64,000 bases of DNA from Candidatus Woesearchaeota archaeon (GCA_014729505.1 WJJS01000013.1:8457-72456), one strand, 5' to 3'. Shown: positions 1 to 36,463, numbered from the stretch's first letter. Made by a program: numbers and translations. The notes: a model not told the origin generated them from the sequence alone.

Positions 1-12
1 TTTTTATCATAC

Positions 13-1622: not shown

Positions 1623-1928
1623 GCATTCGTATGCGCTGCAAACATATAAAAATATCCGTTTTCAACACGTTTTAACGGATTTTGGTTGGTTAGCCTTATA
1701 TACGATAAAACCATATGATGATTTATAGCCCATGCGAACGTCTCTATTTGCCCACAATTTGAAGAAGCATTCGTACATAAAGAGGAGAATCGGCTCTGTA
1801 CGTCAAGTGAGTGTAAGAAAGATTTCGCTTAGTTTGCCTGTTACCTATTGCGGTAACACACTCATTGCAGGCTAACTACGCGAGGATAGTACTAAAGTCT
1901 TTTATACCGACTTACTGTGAAGAACACT

Positions 1929-15317: not shown

Positions 15318-16114
15318 TGATCATCTTTAGCCATCGCGCAAACGGGTACGGATTTTTAGAAAACAGCCGAAACGCCATACAACACGCACTTGCAAGCGAT
15401 GTGGACGGTATTGAAATTGATCTTCGACTCACAAAAGACAACCACTACGTCGTCTGTCATGACGCGTATCTTGATCGCGTCTCGCGAGGAACCGGACTGC
15501 TACGCAAAAAAACTGCAGCACAACTGCAAAAAGAACGATTACTTGACGGACAAGGACTGCTCTTTTTTAATGAGTTTTTGCAACTCTTACAAACATCAAA
15601 CAAACAGTGCATCATCGAACTCAAAGATAACGGACAAGAACAAGAAGTCATCACACAACTCAAAAAGCATCACCTACTCAAGCAGTGTTTTCTCGCCTCA
15701 TGGAATCCGCACGCACTAGAAAAAATACGACACCTCTCAACACAAGCACAAACACTACTCTACTACGTACCTGTACCGCGCTTTCTCAGATTCATAACAC
15801 TTTCAAGGAAAAAAATGTTTGACGGTGACGAGGTCACGATCGGTCTTAATACCTTTTCAGCAATGAGACCTCAAGATTTCACCGTACTCCTGAGTTCATA
15901 CGTACCACAACTCTCATGTAACGGCATAGGCATACCGCACGTTGCAATACAACCACACGTGATTAAGGCATGCAAGACGCGAGGATTACATCTTATCACA
16001 TATGCAGTCAACAACACAAGTACCTACACGCGTCTACGCGCCCTAGGACTCTACGGCGTGATCAGTGACCGCCCGCGAAGTCTTTATGCAGCACGGTCCG
16101 GAGACTCCATGTAA
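15317..16114 (+). CDS. glycerophosphodiester phosphodiesterase (GDPD family)
   Basis: N-terminal FSHRANGYGFLENSRNAIQHA... and IEIDLRLTKDNHYVVCHD match the GDPD HR(G) / E-N-(T/S) / E-x-D / H-D signature. Confidence 0.85.
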   Translation: MIIFSHRANGYGFLENSRNAIQHALASDVDGIEIDLRLTKDNHYVVCHDAYLDRVSRGTGLLRKKTAAQLQKERLLDGQGLLFFNEFLQLLQTSNKQCIIELKDNGQEQEVITQLKKHHLLKQCFLASWNPHALEKIRHLSTQAQTLLYYVPVPRFLRFITLSRKKMFDGDEVTIGLNTFSAMRPQDFTVLLSSYVPQLSCNGIGIPHVAIQPHVIKACKTRGLHLITYAVNNTSTYTRLRALGLYGVISDRPRSLYAARSGDSM

Positions 16115-16388
16115 CGTCCAAGTTTGGTCACCACCCTGGATTCTTCTTGATTCCTATCATAATGTACTCTGTACAGTGTTTGATTGTCATACACAAAATA
16201 ATATCCATCACCCACATATGCAAAATCCTCATTCATCGCTTCACTAATCAATTCTTCCAGCATACTATCACCCAACACCACAGTATTGACAGTCTTTACA
16301 TAGCTTTACCAGGACAGCCCGAAAAAAAGCCATAAAAATCCCTAAAAATTTCGAAATATTTAAGAAACACGCCCGGGCAAGAAACCAA

Positions 16389-16724
16389 ATGAGAGCACTA
16401 ATCGTTCTCGTCGCGATAGCAATGCTTTGGGGTTGCACAAGCTACCAGGCAACGCTTGAAGAAAATACGACCGCACCGGAAGGAATCAAGGTACTTATAA
16501 GCGACTACAAATTCCATCCACAAACACTTATGGCGAGTGTTAATGATACGATTATTTGGCAAAACCTCGACAAAGACCCTCACAGCATACTATTTCAAGA
16601 AGAGGAATCGCCACTGCTGGAAAAAGGCGACACGTACAGCGTGCGCGTAGAACAACCCGGCAGATTTAATTATTCAAGCGGCAACCACCCGTTTATAGAG
16701 GGAATAATACGGGTAGAGACATAA
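16389..16724 (+). CDS. cupredoxin-fold-like lipoprotein (lacks canonical Cu ligand Cys)
   Basis: Lipobox (AMLWGCTSY); beta-rich plastocyanin-like segment (YKFHPQTL...DTIIWQNLDKDPHS...GNHPF) with no C-terminal Cys/Met ligand set. Confidence 0.45.
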   Translation: MRALIVLVAIAMLWGCTSYQATLEENTTAPEGIKVLISDYKFHPQTLMASVNDTIIWQNLDKDPHSILFQEEESPLLEKGDTYSVRVEQPGRFNYSSGNHPFIEGIIRVET

Positions 16725-16771
16725 AAACAAGACAGAAACCTTTATAAATGGATCGATGGTTTGAACGAGGT

Positions 16772-17035
16772 ATGAAAGGAGTTATCGCCAATTTTCGGGG
16801 AAGTAGACGGAGAAAACGTGGAGACTACATGCTCATCGTTATCGATGGCATTAGTACACGAGAAAAAGCACAAGCACTCGAAGGAAAACCAGTGACATGG
16901 ACTAGTGCTGGAAAGAACAAAACAGCCATTTCGGGCAAAGTAACAGGCGCACACGGCAACAAGGGCCTTGTAAAAGCGCAATTTGAGCGAGGACTGCCAG
17001 GCCAAAGTCTCGGACAAGAAGTGAGCATCGAATAA
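16772..17035 (+). CDS. rpl35ae: ribosomal protein L35Ae (eL33)
   Basis: GKVTGAHGNKGLVKAQFERGLPGQSLGQEV matches the L35Ae signature. TATA tttataaa at 16740-16747, about 28 bp upstream of the chosen ATG. Confidence 0.85.
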   Translation: MKGVIANFRGSRRRKRGDYMLIVIDGISTREKAQALEGKPVTWTSAGKNKTAISGKVTGAHGNKGLVKAQFERGLPGQSLGQEVSIE

Positions 17036-17076
17036 TTCTTCTCTCTTCAGACAAAGTCAGTAATTTCTAATTGGAG

Positions 17077-17574
17077 CTATCTTAAGAAAGCCGGAAGAGC
17101 CGGGAGAATCAAATTCCAAATATAGGGCGACGCAGCTACCAGTCCGCCAACAAAAAACGTGTGAAACCAGGTTTCAGACAAACCACTGATATTTGCCTGA
17201 GCCTTAGTCGCCCGACTCACCGCGTGCACTTTGATTGCCGTAATCACACCAATAATAATACGAATACCTAGCACACTGCTAATCACGGGAACAGTCTTTA
17301 GCGCAGGAATAAGACCCAACACAAACTCTACATTAAATACAGCAAAAGTAGCAACAAGTGCATAAATAAACGCATGAGCGGCATGACCAAATTTGTGCTG
17401 TGGCACAGCTACGTCCTTCATAAGCGTAATTGCTTCATACAAACCAATAATAAGACCGCAAACAATAGCAGACTTCAACTGCAACTCAGGACTGGCCGAT
17501 TTAGCTGCGGTTCGCTGAGCAAACACAATAGGAACAATCACCAAATAAAGCAGCCACCGCAGATGTTTCATCAT
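17077..17574 (-). CDS. hypothetical integral membrane protein
   Basis: 165 aa with signal/TM N-terminus and 4-5 hydrophobic helices. Confidence 0.5.
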   Translation of the reverse strand: MMKHLRWLLYLVIVPIVFAQRTAAKSASPELQLKSAIVCGLIIGLYEAITLMKDVAVPQHKFGHAAHAFIYALVATFAVFNVEFVLGLIPALKTVPVISSVLGIRIIIGVITAIKVHAVSRATKAQANISGLSETWFHTFFVGGLVAASPYIWNLILPALPAFLR

Positions 17575-17616
17575 AACCTCTTTTTATCACTGCATGGTTC
17601 TGCGATTATATAAATC

Positions 17617-18486
17617 TTATGCGGATTCCACATACAAGCGAGAAATTTCCCGTTCCCGTCGCGAAGAAAAATACGCTTCCTGTGCCGCTTCAAAATACGA
17701 TATCGCTTCATCAGGCTGTTCATGAACCGCATGAAATCTCGCAAACCATTCCAGTAGTGCTGATCTACGCACACCAACAGCACGATTCAAGTGACGCTGC
17801 ATAAACGTTACTGCACGTTCCTTATCTCGCAGAGCATACGTATCAGCAACAGCACAAATACTGCCCATGTCACGCAACGACGACGCACCAAGAGTATAAC
17901 GACGCGCACATGATTGATGAAAATGGTCAATAAAAGAATAGTGCTCAGTGGCAAACTCCTCAATAACAACACGAGGCATTTCACGACCATCGAGCGCGCG
18001 ATGCAAACGTTCATGATACCTATTATTTACTTTATTACGAAACCACCCATGAGCACCACTGTACTCCGGGGGAGGATCATGAAGCACTGTATCACTACTT
18101 GCCAGCAAACGATACCCAAAAGGTGAAAGAACCGCGTACTGACGCGTTTTTGGCAACTTCTCACACCAACTATTAGTTACAGCATATTCTGGCGGCAGTT
18201 GATCACAGTCTACGGGCAAACAATACTTGTGCTGCCCATCAAACAAGTGAACATCACCATCCTCTCTGCACAAGCGCAGCTGAAAGACTTCCTTATATGA
18301 CGGTTGCCACGTCATACCCTGTTCATCTGGGAAAAAAACCTGGTGCTGCTCATCTGCAGCAAGTACACACCATTCAGATTCAATAATGCCAATCATCTTC
18401 TTCCTCCACCGCAGGAGAGCGCAGTGCGCGACGATACTCTTGACGAACATGTCTGCGAATACCTCCCGCACGTTCATAGGCTTCAT
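17617..18486 (-). CDS. hypothetical protein (GC-rich, R-rich; helical-repeat-like C-terminus)
   Basis: 289 aa in a local high-GC stretch (about 58%) unlike the neighbours; no known motif. The start may be the internal MIGIIESEW. Confidence 0.45.
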   Translation of the reverse strand: MKPMNVREVFADMFVKSIVAHCALLRWRKKMIGIIESEWCVLAADEQHQVFFPDEQGMTWQPSYKEVFQLRLCREDGDVHLFDGQHKYCLPVDCDQLPPEYAVTNSWCEKLPKTRQYAVLSPFGYRLLASSDTVLHDPPPEYSGAHGWFRNKVNNRYHERLHRALDGREMPRVVIEEFATEHYSFIDHFHQSCARRYTLGASSLRDMGSICAVADTYALRDKERAVTFMQRHLNRAVGVRRSALLEWFARFHAVHEQPDEAISYFEAAQEAYFSSRREREISRLYVESA

Positions 18487-18688
18487 CCAACTCCTCCATT
18501 GTCATACACTCCAAACGCTGCTCAATCGCATCAAAATCCCGTTGTGTCTTGATTCTGCGACGCTCAATGGAATACTCCTGCAGTATCCGATCGTGAAGAC
18601 GAGGTACAGAAAAACAACACGAGATAACACCCACAGCAATAGCAGCATATAGTACCACTCGCGGCCGTTCATAGTCGTAAATTGCCAT
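18380..18688 (-). CDS. small membrane-anchored protein (GC-rich islet)
   Basis: 102 aa; one N-terminal TM (VVLYAAIAVGVISCCF) then a charged R/E-rich tail; same GC-rich composition as the overlapping downstream gene. Confidence 0.4.
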   Translation of the reverse strand: MAIYDYERPRVVLYAAIAVGVISCCFSVPRLHDRILQEYSIERRRIKTQRDFDAIEQRLECMTMEELDEAYERAGGIRRHVRQEYRRALRSPAVEEEDDWHY

Positions 18689-18877
18689 ACTCCTCCTGTG
18701 TTTTGAGCCTTAAAGAACTTTTTTTCCATCATCTGCCATCACTTGCAAAGAAAGCGAAACATGCAACGATCGCAGCGAAGATTATTCGACAAAGAACACC
18801 ATAACCGAAAATCCTGCGACCAGTCTGCAAAACATTTATATACGTCACTATCGCCTTAGTCATTAAAGAGGTGCAAC

Positions 18878-19936
18878 ATGCGACGATTGTTCAACTACAG
18901 CCTACTCACGGTGTTATTTTTACCTGCAGCTTATGCATCAAATCCTGCAGTTGATCGTGTTTTAACCTTTATTCGCGATATCTTCACATCAATCTTCAAT
19001 CCAAGTGCAGAAGGCCTTGGCATTTTTCTAAAATTCCTCATTATTGTTACCACATTTGGCATCGTCTACGAACTGCTGCCAAGCGACTGGAAAAAAGGAG
19101 TGCGCGGCGTTATTGCAGGAGGACTCGCTCTTGGCGCAGGACTCGCCATCCCAACAAGTCTTGCACTAACATCAGGCACACTGCTTGGCGCCATCGTCGT
19201 CGCAGTCATTTTCCTTATACCCTTCGCACTCTTATCCTTAGCAACATATCACGGTATGAACTATGTAGACACGAACTGGAAATATCCGGCCTTTGCACTA
19301 ATGTGGCTGGTCTATTTCACCATACTCGTGTACTTCCTGGCACATTGGGGGCAACTGCTTCAAGCATTCGCATGGGTCTTTTTTGTCGTACTCATCCTTG
19401 CCATCATCTCGCCAATCATCGTACTTGTCCTCATAGGTGTCGCCATTCTCGGCGGCGAAACACGAGAAGGAACGTCATGGAAAAACCTCATGAAAAACAT
19501 CTCACGCAATGACGTCAAAAACAAAGCAACAGATGCCAACAAACATCTGGGACGCGCACAAGCATTACTGCGGGCAGTACCAAAAACCAAGAGCGTCGAA
19601 GCAAAACATGCCAAAATACGCGAAGCTCTATCAGCATTGCGCGCAAGCAAGAACTCTGTAAACCTTATCGCGGCACAAGCAGCAAAACTCTTAGCCGATA
19701 AAGAAATCGCAGATACCACAAAAAAAGACGCCGTGCGAGACGCGCAAGACCTAGTAGGAGAACTCAACGCACTCATGTTCGACCTGCATCCACTGCTCGA
19801 TGAAGAGAAAGGCGATACCATCGATACCTATCTCAAGGATAACGATTACCATGAAAAGGATAAATCAAAGAATCCGATCGCGTTTTTCATGGATCGGATC
19901 AGCATAGTGTCACAAATCACCCGTCAGGGCGATTAG
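18878..19936 (+). CDS. polytopic membrane protein with signal peptide and soluble helical C-terminal domain (paralog 1)
   Basis: Signal peptide (LLTVLFLPAAYAS), about 6 TM segments, then a K/A-rich helical cytoplasmic or extracellular domain. TATA-like tttatata about 40 bp upstream. Confidence 0.6.
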   Translation: MRRLFNYSLLTVLFLPAAYASNPAVDRVLTFIRDIFTSIFNPSAEGLGIFLKFLIIVTTFGIVYELLPSDWKKGVRGVIAGGLALGAGLAIPTSLALTSGTLLGAIVVAVIFLIPFALLSLATYHGMNYVDTNWKYPAFALMWLVYFTILVYFLAHWGQLLQAFAWVFFVVLILAIISPIIVLVLIGVAILGGETREGTSWKNLMKNISRNDVKNKATDANKHLGRAQALLRAVPKTKSVEAKHAKIREALSALRASKNSVNLIAAQAAKLLADKEIADTTKKDAVRDAQDLVGELNALMFDLHPLLDEEKGDTIDTYLKDNDYHEKDKSKNPIAFFMDRISIVSQITRQGD

Positions 19937-19983
19937 GCGCAAACATTAATAAATATCACATTATTACAAAGGCTCGAGGTGCA

Positions 19984-21144
19984 ATGATTATGAAAAAGAG
20001 GAACCTATTATCATTCGGATTCTTAATTACAATTTTTTTGGCCAGTATGGTCTATGCGCAAAGCCCAGTGGATGTTATTATTAGCATCTTTGCAGGGATT
20101 GGTCGCGCATTAAGCGGGATCGGCAATGCGCTCTTTGGCAGTCTAGATACGCAAGCAGGAGTCATCGGACTCTTACAATTTATAGCGTGGCTCTTAATGG
20201 CAGTCGTGACCTATGAACTCTTACGATTTGTCAATCTAAGCAAAGGCGTACGCATCATCATTGGTGCACTCGTCTCACTAGGTCTTGTACTCGTCATACC
20301 AGGAACACTCATCTTGACACTGTTTGCACAGTTCGGCGCACTAGTAACGCTTTTTGTGCTCGTCATCTTTGGAGCAGTACTCACCTTAGCAACAAGCTGG
20401 CTCAAACCAATAGACAGCTGGCAGAAACTGCTCATCGTCTGTCTCGTCTGGGGTAGCTTTTTGTGGATCATGTGGAATCTGTTCCTCGGCATCAACACCT
20501 CAAATGCTATTCCAGGAGAACTCGCACAATGGCCCATGGTCGTCTTTACCATTTATGGCGTAGGTGTTCTTGCATGGCTCATCTTGAGCGTGCTGTTTTC
20601 AGGCGGACAAACAGTTGCAGAAGGAAAAACATTCAAAGCCATAAAAAAAGCTGCAAGCAAAAAATGGGAATCAGCAGTGCTATCAAAAGTAGGTCGCGAA
20701 ACAGAACGAGTAGCATCATCACTAGACAAACATTACAACGAACTCAAATCGAAAGGAGCAACATGGGATGCAAACGCGCTCAAAGATAATTTTTGTCAAC
20801 CAGTAGAACTCGAACTGGCAAAGATTTCTTCACTTCTCAACGTCGAAGTAAGCAAAATGGATGCGGTCTCAGGAAAACCCCATCAAACATTAGTGGACTA
20901 TATCAAAAACAATGTGATAAAATTTATTGAAGCAACAGGAAATCCTACCATCGGAGGATTCCACCTCAAGCACGGAGGACTAGAACCATGGCTCAAGGAA
21001 GGAGGATGGTTGCACAGTAATTGGGAGACTGGCGATAATGTCAAGTCAGACCTTGCAACGTACTGCACGGCAGAATTAGGGCCTGCTCTTGCCACCTTCC
21101 ACGACATGCTCTACAAAGTCAATAAAGATCTTCCCAACCTATAA
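19984..21144 (+). CDS. polytopic membrane protein with signal peptide and soluble C-terminal domain (paralog 2)
   Basis: Same architecture as 18878-19936 (signal peptide FLASMVYAQSP, about 6 TM, soluble C-terminal domain); similar size. Confidence 0.6.
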   Translation: MIMKKRNLLSFGFLITIFLASMVYAQSPVDVIISIFAGIGRALSGIGNALFGSLDTQAGVIGLLQFIAWLLMAVVTYELLRFVNLSKGVRIIIGALVSLGLVLVIPGTLILTLFAQFGALVTLFVLVIFGAVLTLATSWLKPIDSWQKLLIVCLVWGSFLWIMWNLFLGINTSNAIPGELAQWPMVVFTIYGVGVLAWLILSVLFSGGQTVAEGKTFKAIKKAASKKWESAVLSKVGRETERVASSLDKHYNELKSKGATWDANALKDNFCQPVELELAKISSLLNVEVSKMDAVSGKPHQTLVDYIKNNVIKFIEATGNPTIGGFHLKHGGLEPWLKEGGWLHSNWETGDNVKSDLATYCTAELGPALATFHDMLYKVNKDLPNL

Positions 21145-22142
21145 TGGCTTTCCAACGATTTGTCCGGATGCGCGCAGAACTCTCGGTACTCTACAATAAA
21201 ATAGACGGGCCGAAAGTCAAAACAACAAGCGACGTAGACGATTTAGAAAAGAAATTCATCCCTCTGGCCGCCGAGCGTGTACAAACATTTCTTAAACACG
21301 ACGGTAAAACAAGACTGCACGTTATCCAACAAGAATATAACGAGCTAGGCGTGAAAAATCTCGACACTGTCAACAAAAGCGTGTTTCGCGCACCAAGTGC
21401 AACAATGCCCCAACTGCTCGAAGCAAGCAAACATGTCAAAGTCGCTACTATCGATAAAGAAATCGTACGACAAGAAGAGAAAAAAGCAGAAGCACAACGA
21501 ACAATCGACGAAGTCAAGAATTGGATCACAGATAACTACGGCGCGGTAGCAGGAGCTGCAGACGCAGCCAAAGCAGAACGGGCGACAAAACGAGCAGAAG
21601 AAGACGAAGCTCTTGAAGCAGTCACAGAAAAAAAAGCAGAACTACAAGCACTGAGTGGCGCAAACGCACTAGCAAAAGAAATATTCTTGCGTAGTCAAGC
21701 AGGCATGCCCAACCCACAAATACGCAGCGAACTCATCAGCGAAGGTAATGCAGAAGCAGACGTAGACGCAGCATTTGCACTTACCGATCCACTCATGATG
21801 GCATTGAGTGCACGACTTGATACGTGGAAAGAAAAAAACACTGCGAAAAAAGATGCAGAAGCACAGTACCAAGAACTCAAAAGTCAGATGCGCAAAGGCG
21901 TCAAAGCAAAAGAGAAACGCAAAGCAGCAGAAGAACAACTAGACGAACTACAAAAAAATCGCGTACAAATTATCACTCTAGGACTCGATCTTCAAGAACT
22001 CTGGCGCTTGCACACGCAGATAGTGAGTATCGACTTGACAGGTACGTACGACGAACAACAACTCAAACTCGAAATACTACACTTCAAAGCGACGATCTAC
22101 CATCTCACACACCGCGTTCTCACACCGCTTATCGAAGCTTAG
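21144..22142 (+). CDS. hypothetical alpha-helical/coiled-coil protein
   Basis: 332 aa; ATG overlaps the stop of the preceding gene (taATGg), suggesting translational coupling; E/K/A-rich helical regions. Confidence 0.5.
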   Translation: MAFQRFVRMRAELSVLYNKIDGPKVKTTSDVDDLEKKFIPLAAERVQTFLKHDGKTRLHVIQQEYNELGVKNLDTVNKSVFRAPSATMPQLLEASKHVKVATIDKEIVRQEEKKAEAQRTIDEVKNWITDNYGAVAGAADAAKAERATKRAEEDEALEAVTEKKAELQALSGANALAKEIFLRSQAGMPNPQIRSELISEGNAEADVDAAFALTDPLMMALSARLDTWKEKNTAKKDAEAQYQELKSQMRKGVKAKEKRKAAEEQLDELQKNRVQIITLGLDLQELWRLHTQIVSIDLTGTYDEQQLKLEILHFKATIYHLTHRVLTPLIEA

Positions 22143-23548
22143 TAAAACCTGGCAATTCTTGTCAGTTTTCGCACAACATCCTGACGTTCTTCAGTACTTA
22201 AAGGCAAATCCAAAAGACATTCATAACAGGAACGGGCTCCTACAGCATCCGGACGATCCTGCTGGAGATACGCTTCGGCCATCCATTCAAGAGAACGACG
22301 CTGGAACGTCTCGCTGGCTTGAGAGTTTATACGAGACAAGAACGGAATCGCAAACGGAGCGCGAAACCCTGCCTTGTTCGAAAACACTTCTAAGTCATTC
22401 TCAATAATACCTCGCCAACCCGCATCAGCAGCACGCCAAACGTCTGCATAAATACGCTGCGCTTTCTCCCGACTCTCAGGAGTACCAAGATCAAGCAAGG
22501 AACGCGCATACGTGATCTTTGCAGTCATATCCGGTAAGTCAAGCGTAGCAAATCGGCCAGCAGCTGTCGACGCATCGCCATTCGCGTATGCGTTATACGC
22601 GCGCTTAAGCCAAAAATTCAAAACACTCGGTTCAGGCAAACGAGACCAGCGAGTCTGTCCACGAGGTTGAGGACGTCTAGGCAAAGTCGCCCTTGCAGCA
22701 GAGCCGCCTCCAGACATACCTGCAAGTCCGCCCCACACCTGTCTATACATATCAGTTAAATCAGTCATTGCACTTCCTCCACCACTTGGCATGGCGCCGG
22801 CGGCTCCAGCAGCAGGCACACTACCAGCTCCAGTCGAGCCACTAGGTGCGGGCGAAGCCAGCCCCCCACGTTCAGCAACATAGCCGGCCAAACGGCTCAG
22901 CTCGTCACGTGTTAATCCTAATTGTTCGCGCGCTGTTTCAAGATCTTCAGTGGCGCGATCACGTTCACGTTCAGCAAACGCATAATTCGTCTCGAGTTGT
23001 TCGCGATTACGCTGTTCATGCATCAAATCAATTTCAAGATCAACAACATTGGCTCTTTCATCACTTAACTCTTGTTCGACCTCTTCAATACGGCGTTCGT
23101 AATCTGCAATCTGACGATCAAGATAACGCACTTCAACTAACGCGTCGACAAGATCTCCGACAAGATCGTGAACATACTGACGAGCCTCACCAAGATCTCT
23201 TCGATTGCGCTCATCAACCGTTAACCACGCATCACGCTCATCACGACGATCAGCACGATCATCAGCTAACGCATCCATCCATGCATCACGCTCATCACGA
23301 TGATTCGCATCAGCAAGACGACGAGCAGCATTACGGTCAGCATACAAACGACGACGTTCAAGATCACGATCAGTATAAAACTGCCTTCGTTCATCAGCAC
23401 GATCATCAACCCACGCATCACGCTCATCACGACGATCAGCACGCTCATCACGACGATCACGCAACACACGAACAAGCGCTTGAAAGAGCGCTCCCGCTGG
23501 CAAATTGCTATAATCAAATCCACTCATTCCTATATGTTGTCTAGCCAC
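22139..23548 (-). CDS. ORFan protein: N-terminal RDERDAW tandem repeats, coiled coil, Gly/Ala/Ser linker, helical-repeat C-terminal domain (GC-rich island gene E)
   Basis: 469 aa. About 26-aa repeats (DRRDERDAW.DD.AD) encoded by three copies of the about 27-nt motif (g)catcacgctcatcacga(c/t)ga within 23225-23445; GC about 60%. Confidence 0.55.
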   Translation of the reverse strand: MARQHIGMSGFDYSNLPAGALFQALVRVLRDRRDERADRRDERDAWVDDRADERRQFYTDRDLERRRLYADRNAARRLADANHRDERDAWMDALADDRADRRDERDAWLTVDERNRRDLGEARQYVHDLVGDLVDALVEVRYLDRQIADYERRIEEVEQELSDERANVVDLEIDLMHEQRNREQLETNYAFAERERDRATEDLETAREQLGLTRDELSRLAGYVAERGGLASPAPSGSTGAGSVPAAGAAGAMPSGGGSAMTDLTDMYRQVWGGLAGMSGGGSAARATLPRRPQPRGQTRWSRLPEPSVLNFWLKRAYNAYANGDASTAAGRFATLDLPDMTAKITYARSLLDLGTPESREKAQRIYADVWRAADAGWRGIIENDLEVFSNKAGFRAPFAIPFLSRINSQASETFQRRSLEWMAEAYLQQDRPDAVGARSCYECLLDLPLSTEERQDVVRKLTRIARFY

Positions 23549-23567
23549 TGTCGTTACTTATTGTTGT

Positions 23568-24671
23568 TTATAGATCGTCAAAGTCGTAATCACTCGGGTC
23601 CGGCACTCCGCCAAACATATTATAGACTTCATGAGCCTGTTCACAAAAACCGTCAAGAACCGTCCTCATTTCTTCAGTTCCCAAACTTCGTTGGAAGCCG
23701 CGATACTGCGGACTGCGACGAAACGCTGCCAAACGAGCAGCATCAACACGCCGAGCAAGTTCTCGCTGCGCATCAGTTTGTGAATACGAAGAGGTCGTTA
23801 ACGGATCCGCAGCAGCATCAGGAAGATCAGCAGGAACTCTGCTGTCACGCTCAAAAGCTGCAAGATCTTCATCAGCAACATAAATGTCTGCCACCTTTGC
23901 AATACGATGCCAATCTTGCTGCATATTCGTACCATATTGTGCCATCACACCAAGAATGGCCATTCTACGCTGCAAAGAGCTTATCTCTGACTGTTGGTCT
24001 TCAATAATTTGATACAATTCGCCTGCTCGTCGATCAACACGCTTGACAAAGTCATGCGTTCGATAACCCCGAGGGCCAATCTGTGAAGGTCCGTCTTCAC
24101 TCTTATCATCAGGATAGCGAGGCGCATCACCGTTAGCATCAGGTCGCATATACTCGTGCTCACCAACACTAGTATCAGTCATGGTATGAGAATCTGAAAG
24201 ATCTGGGTTGCCAGGTTCTTCATGCGCTGCTTCAATAGCCATACGATGGACATTCGTATTTCTTGGAAACACAAACATGCGTCGCACCTGATCCAAAAAG
24301 TGATTTTCCATCAAAAAATTCTGCAAAGTGGTCCGTCCATAGTCTGAACGAAGCATATGACGAAAACGATTAAAATAATCGCCCGCAGCAGGTGATTCTC
24401 CAGCCCGATGAGCTTCATAACCGCGAACAACTTCTCGCCAGCAAATAGGACCTGTCTCATCGCGCACCGTGTTAGCGCCCATGCGATTACTGTACTGATC
24501 ATAATTCCAGATGACAAGATCAATTAACAATTTTGCATCACGGGCTTCATCAACACTTCCACCATGAAAACCAAAACCATTCATAGCAACGTGGCGTCGT
24601 CGACGCGGAAAATCTTCTCTTTGTTCACTCATAATAACCCCTCCTAGGTTCTTCACAAGACGAGTAACCAA
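23568..24671 (-). CDS. ORFan protein (GC-rich island gene D)
   Basis: 367 aa, no recognisable motif, acidic C-terminus (…DYDFDDL); co-directional and closely spaced with neighbours. Confidence 0.55.
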   Translation of the reverse strand: MVTRLVKNLGGVIMSEQREDFPRRRRHVAMNGFGFHGGSVDEARDAKLLIDLVIWNYDQYSNRMGANTVRDETGPICWREVVRGYEAHRAGESPAAGDYFNRFRHMLRSDYGRTTLQNFLMENHFLDQVRRMFVFPRNTNVHRMAIEAAHEEPGNPDLSDSHTMTDTSVGEHEYMRPDANGDAPRYPDDKSEDGPSQIGPRGYRTHDFVKRVDRRAGELYQIIEDQQSEISSLQRRMAILGVMAQYGTNMQQDWHRIAKVADIYVADEDLAAFERDSRVPADLPDAAADPLTTSSYSQTDAQRELARRVDAARLAAFRRSPQYRGFQRSLGTEEMRTVLDGFCEQAHEVYNMFGGVPDPSDYDFDDL

Positions 24672-24727
24672 TTTCCTCTTTTTAAATCTTTCTATTATTC
24701 ACTACTCCAGAGTGTTAACCGTTGGCT

Positions 24728-25420
24728 CTATTCTCGTTCGACAAAACCATACTTTTCAGGACAGGGACGCAACTGCAGCACCTGATACATACTCACTGCC
24801 TGACCACACACTATCTCAGCTACCAGACGCATTTCTTCAGTATGCAAACCCTCAAGAAAATCATCAAAATCCGCAGAAGCACCAAACGCCGCCACACGAT
24901 CAATGCTCAACGCAGGAGCACACTCGCGCTGCTCATCAGTCATAGCACGCAAAGAGGTTGTCTGATACCGATCAACGCCCTGACGACGACGATCATCTGC
25001 GTCATCAAACACCGCGGCATCAGTTTCAGGAATAACAAGACCAACACGCTCTGCAAAAGAGGCAAAGTCAGAAAGCAAATGCAAACCATACTGTGCCACT
25101 CTAGCATACGCCTCAGGAACAGCAGGCCCCGCAGCGCCATACTCCACACTCGACGGATCTTGCCCGCGAGATTCCCAGACCCTTCTCACGACCGGATGCA
25201 ACCCGTCAAAATCAACAGAACCCATAGGCCTACCCAAACGCGGCGCAACAAACAACTCGTACAATGCACGACCCTCGCGCGTCTTCAGTGTCGGAGGCTC
25301 GTCAACGCCCAAACGCGAGCCAATAGCATTAGAAAGAATCACGACAAGATCTGACCAGGACCTTGCAGCAAGACGCAACCGCGCTTCGTCCTCATCCAAA
25401 TCACGTTGTCGACGATTCAT
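24728..25420 (-). CDS. ORFan protein (GC-rich island gene C)
   Basis: 230 aa; stop/start overlap with the upstream gene (25417-25420) suggests operon coupling. Confidence 0.55.
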   Translation of the reverse strand: MNRRQRDLDEDEARLRLAARSWSDLVVILSNAIGSRLGVDEPPTLKTREGRALYELFVAPRLGRPMGSVDFDGLHPVVRRVWESRGQDPSSVEYGAAGPAVPEAYARVAQYGLHLLSDFASFAERVGLVIPETDAAVFDDADDRRRQGVDRYQTTSLRAMTDEQRECAPALSIDRVAAFGASADFDDFLEGLHTEEMRLVAEIVCGQAVSMYQVLQLRPCPEKYGFVERE

Positions 25421-25941
25421 TCTTCACCCTTCTTATACAGCCCGCGAATAGCATCTCCAAGCGTGTCAGGCGCTTCACGATCAAAGTCACGCATCAAGCG
25501 ATCGTAATTATCCGCCTTAGGCTGCAATCGCGCAATGATCCGTTCTGCTTTTTCTAGACGAGAGCGTAAATTCGTTTGCTCGCCACGAACTCTTTCTGTC
25601 ATGCGAGAAAAATACGCCGACGCATTGGCAGGAACAAAGGGCTTTTGTGCACGATCTGGAATAATACCTACTTCCTTTGCCGTCTGTTCAAGAGCACTAC
25701 CCATACCCACCATATAATCAAACCATTGACGCACTCCTGAATCAGCAATATTGCTAACGATTGTCGCGTACGCACCATCTGGCGCATCCTTTGATTCAAT
25801 AACATCCCGACAAAGCGTCTGGGCTCTTGGATCTGCAGACAACCATAACTCTCCGAGCGCTCGATATTGTTTTAGCACTCCTTCAGCATGGCGCTTTGCC
25901 TGCAATGCTCGTTGTACTTCATCATCTGATTTGTTTGCCAT
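25417..25941 (-). CDS. ORFan protein with C-terminal LGDxIxxLxxxGEE motif (GC-rich island gene B)
   Basis: 174 aa; C-terminus ...PDTLGDAIRGLYKKGEE parallels the C-terminus of the upstream 556-aa protein. Confidence 0.55.
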   Translation of the reverse strand: MANKSDDEVQRALQAKRHAEGVLKQYRALGELWLSADPRAQTLCRDVIESKDAPDGAYATIVSNIADSGVRQWFDYMVGMGSALEQTAKEVGIIPDRAQKPFVPANASAYFSRMTERVRGEQTNLRSRLEKAERIIARLQPKADNYDRLMRDFDREAPDTLGDAIRGLYKKGEE

Positions 25942-25943
25942 TT

Positions 25944-27614
25944 CTACTCCTCCCCTCTTCCTAATAATTTGTTAATCACATCTCCCAAGGGATCTTCGAT
26001 GGGCTCTTGGAGGCCCTTTATCAAAGTTCCGAAAGAATCACGCAATTGCTCTGCAGCCTCAACATGTTGTGCCATTTGCTGCAAACGCTCATCGAGCTGT
26101 GCCTGCCAGGGAGGCACTTCTTCCGATCCTGCATTCGCAGGATACTGCACTACACGTTGCTTTTCAGACATCATCGGACCGCCCAGGCGAGACCGAATAT
26201 CCTGGAGCAATGCCACCACAAGAGCCGTATCCGGCGAGATAGCAGGTTGAATATCTTGTAAGCGTTGCTCCACAACGTCAAGACGACGAGATAAGGCACG
26301 TACGTCATCAGGTGCTTTCACACTCGGAGCATCGCAGGCATCACTCGAATCGCCACGTTGATCTGCAGTGCGCTTTTTAGCACTGTCAGACTGCTGACGA
26401 TCAAGTGAAGCACGCAACGCATCCATTTCGTCATGCAAAATAGAGACCGCTTCATCATTACGTTCTTGGCGAACCTGTTGTGTACGCAAATACGCAACGA
26501 TATGTTCTTGAGCCCGCGCCGCTTGTTGTGACGCCACACGCATCTCCTGCATCATCTCATCTCTTAACATTTCAAAATCGTTATACGTTCTACTCTCCTT
26601 TTCGGCATCTCTTGCACGACCAGCATGGTAGCGCACCAACGCGTGCAAGCGCTCAATATGCACACTCTGCTCATCAATACGGGCCAAAAGATCAGCAATC
26701 AAACCGCCCTTCTCCTCAGACTCGAGATGAGCAACTGCTTCTTCAATAGACGCTAAACGCACAGCACGTTGTTTGGTCTGCTCAATACTCTCTGTTAGTA
26801 CAGCCACAACTCGCTCATTATATCCTTCATGTATTTTTCGCGACGTCTCTTCAAGAGTAGCAATATGTTCTTGAGATAAACGACCGTGTTCCTTTAAAAT
26901 CGAGGCCAATCGCTGCAAACCCTCAAACGCATAGCGTATACGAGGGCCTGCCTGATCCGGGTCGAGAATCGTTTTTAACACCTCGCCTGTTAACGGCTTT
27001 CCCAACTGTCCATGCGTCTGCAAATAAGTGACTGCAGACTCCACAATCACGTCCAGCACAGTATTAAAAATCCTGCGCGTTCGAGGATCAAGACTCTCTG
27101 CCAACTCCACATACCACCGCATGCATCGATTATCAGAAAATTTTTTCGGTGAGCGAGACTTGAGCGCTGCGCGAGCCGCCAAACAATATCGAAGCGGCAC
27201 GGTATCAGAACCGTAAAGAACAGTCGAGACTTTTCGCATACTTTCTCGAAGAGAACAATCCTGTTCAATACTTGCAGCCCTCCTGCAGAACTCATCAAAA
27301 GCAGCACGACCCCAGTCTGATTTCAAACGTTCGCGAGTCAAACGATAATACTCTCTGGCAGGTCCCTTCTTATCAAGTCTCACTAATCGATAGCCGTCAA
27401 GAGCAGACTGAGCTCGCTTGGACGCTTTTGAAAATTGGCGCTGCAAGTACAATGCATCCTGACGCGCGTCATGCTCTACAGGCACATCCTGCAATATGCG
27501 CGCCAAGGGTTCTTCATACTTCTGCTCTCCTCGACCAGCAATGTCCTTACTCATTTCCCGTTGCCATTTGGTTCCCATCTTAAATCTGCCGTTCACAAGA
27601 CGATACTGCAGCAC
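25944..27614 (-). CDS. ORFan long coiled-coil protein with C-terminal LGDxIxxLxxxGEE motif (GC-rich island gene A)
   Basis: 556 aa, extensive coiled-coil (E/R/Q/A-rich heptads), C-terminus ...EDPLGDVINKLLGRGEE. First gene of the five-gene minus-strand block. Confidence 0.55.
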   Translation of the reverse strand: MLQYRLVNGRFKMGTKWQREMSKDIAGRGEQKYEEPLARILQDVPVEHDARQDALYLQRQFSKASKRAQSALDGYRLVRLDKKGPAREYYRLTRERLKSDWGRAAFDEFCRRAASIEQDCSLRESMRKVSTVLYGSDTVPLRYCLAARAALKSRSPKKFSDNRCMRWYVELAESLDPRTRRIFNTVLDVIVESAVTYLQTHGQLGKPLTGEVLKTILDPDQAGPRIRYAFEGLQRLASILKEHGRLSQEHIATLEETSRKIHEGYNERVVAVLTESIEQTKQRAVRLASIEEAVAHLESEEKGGLIADLLARIDEQSVHIERLHALVRYHAGRARDAEKESRTYNDFEMLRDEMMQEMRVASQQAARAQEHIVAYLRTQQVRQERNDEAVSILHDEMDALRASLDRQQSDSAKKRTADQRGDSSDACDAPSVKAPDDVRALSRRLDVVEQRLQDIQPAISPDTALVVALLQDIRSRLGGPMMSEKQRVVQYPANAGSEEVPPWQAQLDERLQQMAQHVEAAEQLRDSFGTLIKGLQEPIEDPLGDVINKLLGRGEE

Positions 27615-28088
27615 TTTTGCTAGTGCCTAAGCAAGGTACAAGGCCCTTCACTCAGCATTCTGCACCATCCTGCGCGCAACGAGCAAAAACTCTGCGCCTT
27701 ACAGGAACTCTCACTTTTTCCATATTTTTTCACTATTGCAAATTAATGTGCGAATTTCTTTTTATACTTTTTGTTCTTCTATATTCTTTCCTCTATTTTC
27801 TCTTGTATTGCCCTTCTTAGTTGTAATGTTTTGTATATTATGTTACATATATTCTACAATAACCCATTTGTTTCAAATCCATTTCTCCAGACGAACCAAT
27901 CTTGCCAATTCCCGTCGGGAAACGGAAACACACTACAAGAACACCCCAGAATTCGGCAGAGGAGAACGAGCACATCGCATCATCTGGTTCGCGAAAAAAA
28001 CACTTCAAACACCAAACAAAATAGGCCTTTAGTCAGGTCATTTCAGAGCCTTTACTGCGCAAAATCTTTAATCAATAGAGGCTGTCAG

Positions 28089-28240
28089 GCATAATGCCAG
28101 AATCACTGAGAAATCGACAACAACTCCGTTTTTTCGTCTGAAATCTCGCCCTCGCAAGATTCTGAGATAACTTACTTTGTCGATATTTTCCCAGAAATTT
28201 TGTTATAATGCCGTCAGCGCAGGGATAATGCCAGAATCAC
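28089..28240 (+). repeat. two copies of 17-bp direct repeat (g)ataatgccagaatcac plus a partial third copy (ttataatgcc) in the AT-rich spacer
   Basis: Copies at 28089-28106 and 28224-28240; a shorter ataatgcc at 28203-28210. Each copy carries an ATG (MPES...) opening short ORFs of 15 and 44 codons. Confidence 0.6.
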
Positions 28241-28500
28241 CCATTTTTTGTGTTATCGATGCTCTGCCCGCATGGGAGAACGTGTCGGGATTTTTTACGA
28301 CAATTAAAACTTATGCTCGTCAGATTTTGGTTTTGAGTATAGAAAACCCTTTGGTCGCATAAAACGCCGCTCCAAGAGGCCCTATTGATGAAATTCGCCA
28401 AAAAAACCGCGCTAACCACATTACGATCCAAAAATAGTATGCAATCTTTAATCAAATCGCAATTATTATTTTCCTTTGACGAATTAAAACTCTTTGATCA

Positions 28501-29058
28501 ATGATCATTGATTTCTTTGTCGCGATAATGAGAAAGCAGTGTCGGGAAAATCAAAAATTATTTATAAACTCGTTGCTTTGCATCCTCATGAATATCCAAC
28601 TCGAACCACGAGAACCAAGCACACACGGCGTCGACGAATTAGCCACCACGCTACTTGCACGCTTCGGACTCCTACCACGCAAACGCGACAGTGCAGCAAC
28701 AATGCACCAGCTACTCCTAGAACTCACCGAAAAAAAGAAAGAAGCGATAAAGCACAAACAGCCGGAATTAGGCATCCTTACCGTCGAAGAAATGGGCAAA
28801 CACGCGGGCATTGCACGGCAAACGATGTACGATTATTTATCCCGCTGGTTATCTCTGCATATCCTGAAAAAATCAAGCTTCGTGCAAGGCGGCAAAGTCA
28901 TCATCGGCTACGAGCTTAACGGCACCTCACTTGAAAGCGCATTTAGAAAAGCAGAAACAGTGATAAAAAATCACGTCGAACAAAGCTTCAAAATCCTCGA
29001 CACCATGCAAAAGGAAATCAAACGAGAAAAACTCAAGCGCGCTACATCCAGCGAGTAA
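28501..29058 (+). CDS. HTH transcriptional regulator
   Basis: HTH-like segment LTVEEMGKHAGIARQTMYDYLSRW; the real start may be an internal Met (MNIQLEP...). Confidence 0.55.
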   Translation: MIIDFFVAIMRKQCRENQKLFINSLLCILMNIQLEPREPSTHGVDELATTLLARFGLLPRKRDSAATMHQLLLELTEKKKEAIKHKQPELGILTVEEMGKHAGIARQTMYDYLSRWLSLHILKKSSFVQGGKVIIGYELNGTSLESAFRKAETVIKNHVEQSFKILDTMQKEIKREKLKRATSSE

Positions 29059-29563
29059 GCGGCACTTCAAGACCAACAATATTCTTTTGAATCTGCAATT
29101 GGCGAAAACGAGGATGCAGAGCAATACCAATCTTTCCCTTCTTTACCTTCTTTACAAAAGGAACGCCCTTCTCGACGAGACGCGCCACATAACTGCCCAC
29201 CACGCTTGTCGACGTGTTCAAATGCGTTGCGATCTGCGCATACGTGACATACGTAAATGATTCAGTAAGCGACAAAATAGCCCAAAATACTGCCTTTTCT
29301 CGAGTGTTTAACGGCGAGACTGCAAAGGATTCCCTTCTTGTTTTTCCCGATACAACGAGAAACAGTTCATCAATACGGTCTTGAAGATGATTGATACGAT
29401 TATCTAGTTCGCACAAAAAATCAAAGTTCGTCTGCACTTCTGTCGTGTTTTCGTTAATCGCGGTTCTATGTTCGTCAATTTCTCGTCGCATAGAGTGCAA
29501 AATATCTTCAAATATTTTAGCCCCCGATCTAGACAATAACTCTTTTTCTCGAATACATACCAC
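29042..29563 (-). CDS. coiled-coil plus winged-HTH regulator (paralog of 29585-30307)
   Basis: N-terminal coiled coil; C-terminal HTH (TYAQIATHLNTSTSVVGSYVARLVEKGVPF). Confidence 0.55.
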   Translation of the reverse strand: MVCIREKELLSRSGAKIFEDILHSMRREIDEHRTAINENTTEVQTNFDFLCELDNRINHLQDRIDELFLVVSGKTRRESFAVSPLNTREKAVFWAILSLTESFTYVTYAQIATHLNTSTSVVGSYVARLVEKGVPFVKKVKKGKIGIALHPRFRQLQIQKNIVGLEVPLTRWM

Positions 29564-29584
29564 CCCTTTGGTACTTCTTACGTT

Positions 29585-30307
29585 CTAATCTTCAGTGAGC
29601 CTGCGACCTTTAAATACTTTTCTGTTCGATGAAAAAACACGTTCCCTTCCCGACGAGACAACATCGATCAGACCCTCTTTGACCAATTCTTCGAGCAAGC
29701 GATAAAACGAACTCCTACTGCACAATTTCTGTTCATCAACTACAATCTCGCGCAAACTCGTACCGGAAATGCGCTCGTACTTTGCGAGCAACGATAACAG
29801 TGTTTTTTTTATGTACTCCTTGCTCTTTCGCGAAACGTTTTGAACAATCTTTTGCTGCAGATTACTCGTACGAGGACGTTCGCTCACTTTTGGCACCTCA
29901 ACAGGCACGATTTTAGGTCTGCGCGCCTCTTCAAGCAAGGTCTCCATACGCGCCATGCGCCTCTCGAATGCCTCAATACGCTCCAGTTGGCGATCAACAG
30001 GATACTCACTACGCAGAATATGTATCACTTCTGCGCGACCCAGAGAGTCCCGTTGAGCCTTGACCACCCTATTAATAGTACTTCGATGAGCATTGTTTTG
30101 CTCACGTAAGTACTGCACCCATCGAAACAAGTTCTGATTATCCTTTTTTGCCTGGGCCAATTCCTTTTGCACCCCATCCATATCTGTGCGAACTTTGGCA
30201 AACGAAGACTTCACTTGAGCGTGCAAGTCATCCACTTTTTTTTGCGTCTTCCAAAAGACCATCGAGTAATAAGAAGTGGCAGTGCTATAAAATTGTTTCG
30301 AACACAA
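29585..30307 (-). CDS. coiled-coil plus winged-HTH regulator
   Basis: N-terminal coiled coil; C-terminal wHTH (ISGTSLREIVVDEQKLCSRSSFYRLLEELVKEGLI); the palindromic element lies immediately upstream. Confidence 0.55.
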   Translation of the reverse strand: MCSKQFYSTATSYYSMVFWKTQKKVDDLHAQVKSSFAKVRTDMDGVQKELAQAKKDNQNLFRWVQYLREQNNAHRSTINRVVKAQRDSLGRAEVIHILRSEYPVDRQLERIEAFERRMARMETLLEEARRPKIVPVEVPKVSERPRTSNLQQKIVQNVSRKSKEYIKKTLLSLLAKYERISGTSLREIVVDEQKLCSRSSFYRLLEELVKEGLIDVVSSGRERVFSSNRKVFKGRRLTED

Positions 30308-30312
30308 AAAAA

Positions 30313-30526
30313 CCCAGTCCCAGTCCTAAAATAGGACTGAGACAGTCCTATAATGAGACTGAGGCGGGACTGAGACTGAGATCGAGAGACCGCCGCACAA
30401 CAGAACTAGAATCTATTTCCCGTCGTGAACGGTAATTTCCATCCAAAAATCACGTAACAAGAGAGACGCGAGTGAGACAGTCCCAAGACAATCCCAGGAC
30501 AGTCCTAGGACTGAGACTGGGACTAA
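30313..30526. repeat. MITE-like element: about 215 bp bounded by imperfect about 30-bp inverted repeats containing perfect palindromes
   Basis: Left end cccagtcccagtcctaaaataggactgagac; right end gtcctaggactgagactgggact, its near reverse complement. Perfect palindromes cagtcctaaaataggactg (30321-30339) and cagtcctaggactg (30500-30513). Motif ggactgagac repeated three times. Confidence 0.6.
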
Positions 30527-35632: not shown

Positions 35633-36463
35633 ATGGACAAGAACATAAAAAACGAAATACAAGAACTGCGAAACCAGCTTACAGAACTCAATGAGCAAAA
35701 GCAAGCAGGATTTGCTACAAAAGATCCTATTAGACAACAAATTCTCGATGGTATCGCAAGCATAAAACAATGGCGAGCAGATCGCAACATACTCACTGAA
35801 GAAGTAAAAAAACTCAAAGAACAGCGAGGAGAACTCAATGAAAAAGTAGCTCCACTAGCAAAAGAACTGCGAGAATTAAACAATCAAAAAAAGACATTAC
35901 AACAAAAACTTGGCCTGCGTCACGATCCAGTACAACTCTCAACACAAATTGCGCGTATCAACCAACGAATAGAAACAGAAGTACTCTCATTTGACAAAGA
36001 ACAACAACTCATGAAACAAGTCAAAGAGTTGGAAAAAAAATTCAGCGAAGCAAAAGGGACACGAGAACTCTTTGAAAAAATATCGACAAGAGCTGGTGAA
36101 CTAAAAGTTCTGCGACAAGAAGCTGACAAAATACACGCCATCATCCAAGACAAAGCTTCACAAAGCCAGGCATTACACAAAAAAATACTCAGTAAGAGCA
36201 AAGCGCTCGACCTATTGCGAGAACAAGAACAAGAACAACGAGAAAAAATAGGAGAAATAAAAGAACAAATAAAACCAGTAGCCGCCCAACTCGAAGAAAA
36301 ACTCGGAGAAATAAGCAAGCACCAACAACAAAAGAAATCACATACAAAAGAACGAACACAAAAAAGACTGGCACAAAAACAAAAAGAAGTGCAAGAAAAA
36401 CTGTCACGAGGAGAAAAACTCACGACAGAGGATTTAATGATTCTACAAAGTATGGATGATTAG
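35633..36463 (+). CDS. archaeal coiled-coil protein (COG1340-like)
   Basis: 276 aa, almost entirely heptad coiled coil, sitting after the stalk proteins as COG1340 commonly does in archaea. Confidence 0.55.
   Translation: MDKNIKNEIQELRNQLTELNEQKQAGFATKDPIRQQILDGIASIKQWRADRNILTEEVKKLKEQRGELNEKVAPLAKELRELNNQKKTLQQKLGLRHDPVQLSTQIARINQRIETEVLSFDKEQQLMKQVKELEKKFSEAKGTRELFEKISTRAGELKVLRQEADKIHAIIQDKASQSQALHKKILSKSKALDLLREQEQEQREKIGEIKEQIKPVAAQLEEKLGEISKHQQQKKSHTKERTQKRLAQKQKEVQEKLSRGEKLTTEDLMILQSMDD

Follow-up and report, generated by a model that had tools for sequence, protein, structure and literature searches.

A resident, fast-evolving block of five genes for helical proteins in a narrow subclade of Woesearchaeota

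Five genes and their relatives

We analysed a block of five minus-strand genes in a 64-kb window of DNA (the whole stretch of 64,000 nucleotides, GCA_014729505.1 WJJS01000013.1:8457-72456), which is part of a 90-kb contig from a metagenome-assembled genome (MAG) of Candidatus Woesearchaeota, a lineage of DPANN archaea. The five open reading frames (ORFs) of the block are named g1 to g5 and are transcribed from g5 to g1; NCBI annotates them as GF342_02605 to GF342_02625, each as a hypothetical protein. In the order of transcription they are g5 (GF342_02625, 25944-27554, 536 aa), g4 (GF342_02620, 25417-25941, 174 aa), g3 (GF342_02615, 24728-25420, 230 aa), g2 (GF342_02610, 23568-24632, 354 aa) and g1 (GF342_02605, 22139-23548, 469 aa), all on the minus strand. 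An earlier note on this DNA had described five co-directional, tightly packed minus-strand genes, two of them with overlapping stop and start, and the ORFs, the NCBI annotation and junctions of 2 to 95 nt bear out the packing. The overlap is that of g4 and g3, whose stop and start share a 4-nt ATGA; g5 and g4 are separated by a spacer of 2 nt, and the other gaps measure 95 nt (g3/g2) and 19 nt (g2/g1). Read mechanically, the g5 ORF extends to a GTG at 27614, and the starts previously given for g2 and g5 were those of the longest ORFs. Because of their Shine-Dalgarno motifs (an AGGAGG precedes the g2 ATG at 24632), the NCBI gene calls and the alignment of orthologues, positions 27554 and 24632 are most likely the starts of g5 and g2. 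The five ORFs are real genes. Local hidden Markov model (HMM) searches of the whole window and of all fetched loci revealed no further paralogues and no hidden members of the block.

Searches of Pfam, NCBIfam, PHROGs and PADLOC with the five proteins, their sub-domains and their orthologues gave nothing significant: PADLOC returned no match at E <= 0.01 for any of the five, and the PHROG matches of the block proteins were insignificant and of low complexity. Sequence and profile searches of the PDB with g2, g5, the g4, g5, g3 and g2 family profiles and the g1 C-domain found no match, a scan of IMG/VR with the g4, g5 and g3 profiles was empty, and a BFVD fold search gave no match at E <= 0.001. 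These results agree with the earlier description of the proteins as ORFans with no recognisable domain, since the profile libraries hold no significant family match for them, and none of the five was assigned to a housekeeping family. The block fits no described family or system, and its families are unclassifiable.

Relatives proved to be extremely scarce. When g2 and g5 were run against 5.8 billion proteins in word-indexed searches, they recovered only themselves. An exhaustive HMMER search of 1.84 billion representative proteins with a profile of g2 and g3 yielded one outside match, P0007 (E 1e-9), which is encoded on a 7.2-kb contig (L001) of the Logan assembly SRR22808039. All five genes recur on it in unchanged order, beside three genes named d3, d2 and d1 that are also the neighbours of the block in the window. 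The last of these, d1 (28588-29058, plus strand, in the window), encodes a winged-helix-turn-helix-like protein; it lies outside the block, is transcribed away from g5 with about 1 kb of spacer between them, and served as the synteny anchor. It belongs to no Pfam family and has 631 homologues across Woesearchaeota, with 55-79% identity among those listed. Searches of the GTDB representative genomes with g5 and with d1 gave no match, a search of the JGI metagenomes with d1 retrieved one short contig without upstream DNA, and none of the contigs of P0009, P0013, P0067 and P0105 holds the block or enough upstream DNA. The block was found where d1 is at least 72% identical and upstream DNA is available, that is, in the window, in L001 and in a further contig, L003 from JGI 3300041081 (d1 72% identical), and profile HMMs of the block recover these three loci only. 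In L003 the orthologues of g5, g4 and g3 are kept and g2 and g1 are replaced. In six loci with a d1 that is 65-67% identical (L005, L006, L007, L008, L010 and L011) the genes upstream of d1 are different ones and none belongs to the block, in agreement with local HMM searches. Among about 15 billion sequences, each of the block proteins of the three loci is a singleton.

The surroundings of the block are much more stable. The order to its right (d1-d2-d3-methyltransferase-RpoL-x-UPP synthase-L1-L10-DUF7121) is kept throughout, and a left-hand anchor, a bPH-like gene at 17077-17574 of the window, is shared too. Identity between orthologues amounts to 72-77% for d1, 55% for d2, 44% for d3 and 66% for the UPP synthase; within the block it is 25-33% for g4, 29-49% for the N-terminal half of g3 (the only part compared), 27% for g2 and about 23% for g5 (window g5 against M5, its orthologue in L003; there is no BLAST match to Lg5, the orthologue in L001), and for g1 there is a marginal match only. 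The block is conserved at the protein level in the three loci, with invariant W, C, Y and G residues, and its DNA is not alignable. All in all, the block is resident, fast-evolving and confined to a narrow subclade of Woesearchaeota, and it occupies a variable region of an otherwise syntenic chromosome.

Some features of these relatives are recorded here as side observations. The d1-d2-d3 trio (window 28588-30307) encodes small coiled-coil and winged-helix proteins that are conserved across Woesearchaeota, and in one related locus (L002) d1 has an inverted orientation with respect to d2 and d3. In L003, g2 and g1 give way to an unrelated gene of more than 824 codons (1-2472, minus strand), which lies behind a TATA-like element; its K-rich coiled-coil protein contains an acidic low-complexity region rich in P/E/D/N/Q.

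Transcription units, proteins and shared modules

The g5/g4/g3 junctions overlap or nearly abut in all three loci, which suggests that the three genes are translationally coupled and their products made stoichiometrically. The 95-nt gap between g3 and g2 contains a TATA-box-like element, GATTTAAAAAG (24678-24688, minus strand), located about 45-55 nt upstream of the g2 start. At the matching position L001 also has GATTTAAAAAG and L003 has GGTTTATAAAT, so the element is retained in L003 although the gene downstream differs there. We regard it as a putative internal promoter that would set a g5-g4-g3 unit apart from a g2-g1 unit; the block would then be transcribed as two units, with g5-g4-g3 as the conserved triad and g2-g1 as a variable, accessory pair. 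A possible regulatory site, AGGCACTA (27621-27628, minus strand), precedes the g5 start by about 70 nt. Judged by eye, it is conserved ahead of the g5 orthologues, unchanged in L003 and as GGGCACTAGGC in L001.

The spacer between g5 and d1 (27555-28587), upstream of d1, is AT-rich, gene-less and about 1 kb long, and a similar spacer was present in most related loci examined (L001 1710-2715, L003 5105-6114, L005 8880-10000, L007 8826-10000 and L008 2136-3027); in L002 and L011 it is shorter, about 240-550 bp. Short patches of the spacer are conserved (window about 28279-28315 and 28489-28567), and a 21-nt sequence, CAGGSATAATGCCAGAATCAC, occurs twice in direct orientation, at 28086-28106 and 28220-28240. 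Rfam gave no match for the window or for this spacer; the spacer could hold an unannotated RNA or be a large regulatory region.

All five products are soluble, mildly acidic (pI 4.9-6.6) and largely alpha-helical. None of them has a hydrophobic or transmembrane segment (maximum KD19 hydropathy < 1.5) or a signal peptide, and no member carries a Walker A/P-loop motif. By a crude home-made score, heptad segments occur in g1 (135-211), g4 (116-159) and g5 (28-56 and 412-444) and in neither g2 nor g3. The claim that the genes are dominated by coiled coil therefore holds at most for the N-terminal half of g1, for parts of g5 and for the C-terminal helix of g4, and does not apply to g2 and g3, which are without heptad signal.

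The first gene of the conserved triad, g5, encodes a conserved N-terminal domain of about 230 aa, followed by a long helical stretch with little conservation and by a C-terminal tail. Its orthologues, Lg5 (L001 2821-4290) and M5 (L003 3611-5089), match each other at E 7e-12, and M5 matches g5 itself at E 2e-6. In g4, a conserved N-terminal domain of about 90 aa with the invariant residues W33, C44, Y58, F74, Y76 and G81 is followed by the heptad helix at 116-159, which bears an LxP...Y motif and lies ahead of the tail; the orthologues are at L001 4317-4829 (33% identical, E 8e-25) and L003 3063-3590 (25% identical, E 3e-12). The N-terminal half of g3 holds the best-conserved motif of the block, VDEPxLKTREGxxLYxxFxAPxxGxP. 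Its C-terminal half (aa 109-230, nt 24731-25096) duplicates the C-terminal domain of g2 (about 120 aa, nt 23571-23942) and occurs in this genome only: the g3 orthologues (L001 4816-5244 and L003 2546-3073) both lack it. The two C-terminal stretches, each of about 120 residues, are homologous by hhalign (probability 97.4%, E 1.5e-11), and that of g3 is nearer to the g2 of its own genome than to the g2 of L001. Because the domain is missing from the g3 orthologues and nearest to g2 of the same genome, it was duplicated within the block, in this lineage, a sign that the block has been evolving in place. The relative of g2 in L001 is P0007 itself (5338-6393, 27% identical); a single-sequence AlphaFold2 (AF2) model of g2 was unusable (predicted local distance difference test, pLDDT, 45). 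A homology between the N-termini of g2 and g5, seen by eye as 'RLxSxWG' and by BLAST at E 0.004-0.02, was rejected, given an hhalign probability of 2%.

The product of g1 is the most elaborate in outline. Residues 18-210 (nt 22919-23497) are predicted by AF2 as one continuous helix of about 190 residues (pLDDT 80-95), the first half of which is R/D/E-rich and the second half heptad-patterned. The R/D/E-rich half contains three copies of (R/H)RDERDAW, at aa 39, 83 and 101 (nt 23411-23434, 23279-23302 and 23225-23248). Such repeats had been reported in g1 as tandem; the repeats were confirmed and are dispersed, 18 and 44 aa apart, and two of the 40-nt DNA copies that encode them are 98% identical. 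After the helix come a G/A/S/P-rich linker of about 110 aa, modelled with low confidence by AF2, and a predicted helical-repeat domain that takes up the C-terminal ~170 aa (nt 22142-22651), with eight helices predicted at residues 300-468 (AF2, pLDDT 35-89). A Foldseek comparison of this domain with the PDB placed tetratricopeptide repeat (TPR) proteins at the top, with E >= 0.15, and the Pfam matches, all far below gathering scores, were TPR_CcmH_CycH (E 0.092), SPO22 (E 0.17) and TPR_4 (E 0.21). We take the TPR-like character of the domain, as suggested by model and profiles, as a lead and not as a result.

The second shared module is the C-terminal tail of g4 and g5. The g5 tail (25947-25988, minus strand) ends in LGDVINKLLGRGEE-COOH and the g4 tail (25420-25461, minus strand) in LGDAIRGLYKKGEE-COOH. 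The LGDxIxxLxxxGEE-COOH motif that the earlier note had ascribed to both was confirmed: the tails align locally with a score of 42, which is reached by 0/492 interior 22-mers of g5, and the likeness extends to the last ~70 residues (BLASTP similarity over 71 residues). The orthologous g4/g5 pairs likewise end in short amphipathic or acidic segments, FERLIEDNNV and LEKLINEHS in one pair, FTDALDDLL... and FGNEVDKLLNGQ in the other. Judged by sequence, the tail is a possible shared docking peptide. That the g4 and g5 tails co-vary genome by genome was considered and set aside as unproven, the pair in the window alone being significant.

Composition, strand bias and neighbouring genes

The block had been described as having 57-67% GC against a background of 38-42%, and as compositionally foreign and horizontally acquired. 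When it was compared with the remaining genes of the 64-kb window, the reference for all compositional statistics given here, the block had a GC content of 49.0% and the rest of the window 43.5%; the single genes range from 46.6 to 52.2%, and the top 300-bp window anywhere reaches 58%. The GC excess is confined to the first two codon positions and stems from proteins with much R/D/E/A and little K. GC at the first codon position (GC1) is 0.63-0.68, GC3 is 0.34-0.43, within the 0.28-0.54 of the other genes, and the order GC1 > GC2 > GC3 is typical of coding sequence. That the proteins are R/D/E-rich was correctly seen: they contain 10-14% R and 7-10% D, and K ranges from 0.9 to 5.7%, with 0.9-1.1% in g1-g3 and 4.5-5.7% in g4 and g5. 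Arginine is encoded by CGN in 81-89% of cases in the block, as elsewhere in the window, and CGT makes up 47% of its Arg codons and GAT 79% of its Asp codons.

At synonymous sites the block resembles its neighbours. Its third positions (T42/G26/A20/C12 %) follow those of the other 22 minus-strand genes (T45/G28/A16/C11 %) and not those of the plus-strand genes (A42/C29/G12/T16 %), and its synonymous-codon likelihood under a model of the remaining genes gave z = -0.2 to -1.4, within their spread. The codon-usage check that the earlier note had proposed shows no departure at synonymous sites from the other genes of the window, and a match to the local strand-specific third-position bias argues that the block has long been in place, in its present orientation. 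With host-like GC3, third positions and codon z, and with syntenic copies on two Woesearchaeota contigs, the claim of a recent foreign origin is not supported. The make-up of the block (R>>K, D-rich, 49% GC) reflects amino-acid content, not foreign DNA.

The strand bias itself is pronounced. In the window, GC3 skew is -0.41 for plus-strand and +0.46 for minus-strand genes, and cumulative GC skew drops monotonically to -10; to our knowledge, strand asymmetry this strong is unusual for an archaeon. Protein composition varies with strand as well, R/(R+K) being 0.38 +/- 0.11 in plus-strand and 0.51 +/- 0.13 in minus-strand genes (p = 5e-4). The codons of Lys and Glu (AAA/GAA) are rich in A, a base that is scarce on the coding strand of minus-strand genes, and CGT and GAT suit that strand. 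K/E-rich coiled-coil proteins of the kind that the earlier note had taken as host-like (for example 46648-49614, 35633-36463 and 21144-22142) are all encoded on the plus strand. Across the three loci the K-depletion of the block tracks its excess of T over A at third positions: the window has an R/(R+K) of 0.82 at a skew of 0.37, L001 has 0.72 at 0.15, and L003 has 0.50 at -0.02. We infer that Lys was lost by mutational drift of weakly constrained charged positions in fast-evolving helical proteins, a conclusion kept tentative because n = 3 loci. Additional selection against lysine, alongside drift, is possible.

Genes with housekeeping roles lie to the left and right of the block: MetRS, GDPD, a methyltransferase, UPP synthase and ribosomal proteins L1 and L10. 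No tRNA was found in the window, no integrase or transposase domain in the neighbouring genes, and no flanking direct or att-like repeats within 16000-30500. Three co-directional plus-strand genes (18878-22142) converge on g1. The first two (18878-19936 and 19984-21144) encode paralogous polytopic membrane proteins (E 5e-12) with N-terminal signal-like segments and helical tails; the third (21144-22142) encodes a K-rich coiled-coil protein, and its stop codon overlaps that of g1. This trio has no family match in Pfam, NCBIfam, PHROGs or PADLOC. Farther away, at 46648-49614 (plus strand), lies a gene for a 988-aa protein (K 16%, E 15%) that looks like a single giant coiled coil and whose only match is a sub-threshold one to HAUS1.

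A candidate scaffold, its rivals and known systems

We propose that the block is a resident, subclade-specific cluster that encodes a cytoplasmic, non-enzymatic, helical and hetero-oligomeric scaffold or tether, a reading to which we give an even chance. It is based on the shared modules (the C-domain of g2 and g3, the tail of g4 and g5), on the predicted g1 helix of about 190 residues and on the weakly supported TPR-like domain, from which we infer complex formation, tail docking and the scaffold role; the proposed mutational cause of the lysine loss draws on the strand data. The five proteins would assemble in the cytoplasm, with the co-translated triad g5-g4-g3 as the core of the assembly. 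In such an assembly g5 and g4 would supply helical or coiled-coil rods with similar amphipathic, acidic C-terminal tails; g1 would contribute a helical spacer of about 29 nm, a flexible linker and the TPR-like domain, the most plausible receptor of the tails; and g2 and g3 would bring their common globular C-domain. Strand bias would shift weakly constrained charged sites from Lys/Glu (AAA/GAA) to Arg/Asp (CGT/GAT), and the fast-evolving helical proteins of the block would have drifted further than any other gene product of the window.

Several points weigh against this proposal. The orthologue sample consists of three loci, two of them on truncated contigs, and the block could have originated in the subclade ancestor by a transfer long ago. 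Since g1 and g2 are replaced in L003, the proposed receptor is not universal; its TPR assignment was built from sub-threshold matches and a single-sequence model of low to moderate confidence, and interaction among the block proteins is itself a prediction. The likeness of the g4 and g5 tails is significant in the window only (p ~0.06 in L001, p ~0.26 in L003), and hhalign of g4 against g5 fails to recover the tail. This makes gene conversion conceivable, and the tail could be a local product of that process and not a conserved docking signal. Furthermore, R/(R+K) in the block (0.82; 0.91-0.93 in g1-g3) exceeds that of the other minus-strand genes (p = 0.002), so that strand bias does not fully explain the composition.

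A recent genomic island from a higher-GC donor (a host, a partner or a mobile element) would account for a GC content 5.5 points above the rest of the window, for R/D-rich, K-poor proteins that resemble high-GC or halophile proteomes, and for the lack of the block at the same site in more distant Woesearchaeota. However, GC3, third-position frequencies and synonymous codons are host-like and bear the local strand signature, the two closest relatives with upstream DNA (L001 and L003) carry deeply diverged copies in synteny, mobility genes, tRNA and flanking repeats are absent, and no relatives were found in the GTDB representatives, in IMG/VR or, beyond L001, in the library of 1.84 billion proteins; we consider this origin very unlikely. 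About as improbable is the remnant of a decayed provirus or plasmid, whose helical proteins would have had structural or scaffolding roles. Five ORFan proteins in a variable region, one of them a long coiled coil with internal repeats, are what such a remnant might leave, but it has to contend with the absence of any significant PHROG, of IMG/VR relatives for three families, of a significant BFVD fold match and of integrase, capsid or terminase genes, as well as with housekeeping flanks and the same context in three lineages. That the ORFs are non-functional, or were mis-called from strand-biased sequence, could be argued from the singleton status of each protein among 15 billion sequences and from the lack of domains; with lengths of 174-536 codons, Shine-Dalgarno motifs, the GC1 > GC2 > GC3 order and invariant W, C, Y and G residues in three loci whose DNA cannot be aligned, we hold it to be extremely improbable.

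The rate of change invites another explanation, a conflict or interaction cassette (defence, toxin-immunity-like or symbiont-host) shaped by an arms race, in which lysine avoidance would answer lysine-directed modification in a partner cell. What lies upstream of d1 changes with every lineage examined, and L008 has VapBC nearby; divergence of the block proteins is two to three times as fast as that of the flanks; domains have been shuffled within the block and the g2/g1 pair has been swapped out in L003; and K is down to ~1% in g1-g3. Yet coiled-coil and disordered proteins evolve fast without conflict, the K-depletion is graded over the loci and tracks strand skew, and the block has no PADLOC match, no Pfam nuclease, toxin, ATPase or sensor domain, no signal peptides and no secretion-system genes, and we regard such a cassette as rather unlikely. 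A bolder version of the scaffold proposal is distinctly less credible still: a hitherto undescribed cytoplasmic tethering apparatus, peculiar to the one subclade, with g5/g4 rods whose tails dock on a g1 TPR-like hub, carried by a 29-nm Arg/Asp spacer, anchored to the membrane by the proteins of 18878-21144, with a role in cell-cell contact or division in an episymbiotic DPANN cell and with selected lysine avoidance, for example to resist lysine-directed modification.

If the scaffold proposal is true, the block would add a new structural-protein family to the DPANN archaea, about whose cell biology (attachment, division, cytoskeleton) almost nothing is known and many of whose genes lack annotation. 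Clade-restricted ORFan operons are common in DPANN genomes; this one is new in the sense of being unclassifiable, and no unprecedented mechanism is shown. The locus further indicates that strong strand bias can make a native, fast-evolving cluster look foreign while its synonymous sites stay native. Charged helices rich in Arg/Asp as opposed to Lys/Glu may merely reflect the strand of a fast-evolving gene, which calls for caution when islands are called in small archaeal genomes.

Among known systems, the nearest analogies in function are TPR adaptors that bind C-terminal peptides, prokaryotic scaffold proteins rich in coiled coil, and the MIM/MIT arrangement of ESCRT-III. The TPR adaptors (Hop/Sti1 with the EEVD-COOH of Hsp70/Hsp90, Tom70/71 and the IpgC type) are alike in the predicted helical-repeat C-domain of g1 and in the acidic ...GEE-COOH tails of two other block proteins. 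They differ in that the TPR profiles stay below threshold, the model of the g1 domain has a pLDDT of 35-89, and there is no chaperone context; moreover, the g4/g5 tail is not EEVD-like, and the extreme C-terminus is unconserved in the orthologues (DNNV, NEHS, KDAL, LNGQ). ESCRT-III, in which helices with MIT-interacting motifs (MIMs) dock on an MIT-domain ATPase, resembles the block in its co-encoded helical proteins with a short amphipathic C-terminal helix, which in the block might direct them to one partner. In contrast to it, the block proteins have no Snf7 or PspA profile match, their tails are off the MIM1 consensus by inspection, and no Vps4/CdvC-type AAA ATPase or MIT domain occurs in or beside the block (15-36 kb). 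The weak NCBIfam matches of the g1 helix to the coiled-coil arms of SMC/ASRP proteins express coiled-coil likeness only, with 17-18 bits against cut-offs of 567 and 300 and neither a Walker A/B head nor a hinge.

Single alpha-helix (SAH, 'ER/K') domains offer a likeness for part of g1, where residues ~25-110, within the confidently predicted helix, are nearly pure R/D/E/A with few hydrophobic core positions; unlike in SAH domains, the base in g1 is Arg and not the usual Lys, the acid is often Asp, and the Trp-containing RDERDAW repeats break in. Cytoskeletal or scaffold proteins of prokaryotes that are rich in coiled coil (crescentin, FilP/Scy, DivIVA-like proteins and CdvA) are like the block proteins in being cytoplasmic and non-enzymatic, poorly conserved, fast-diverging and lineage-restricted, and their long rods would have a counterpart in the predicted helical or coiled-coil rods of the block. 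The block bears no sequence or profile relation to these scaffold proteins, and it departs from them as a set of five genes that includes the non-coiled-coil g2 and g3 and shared modules other than rods.

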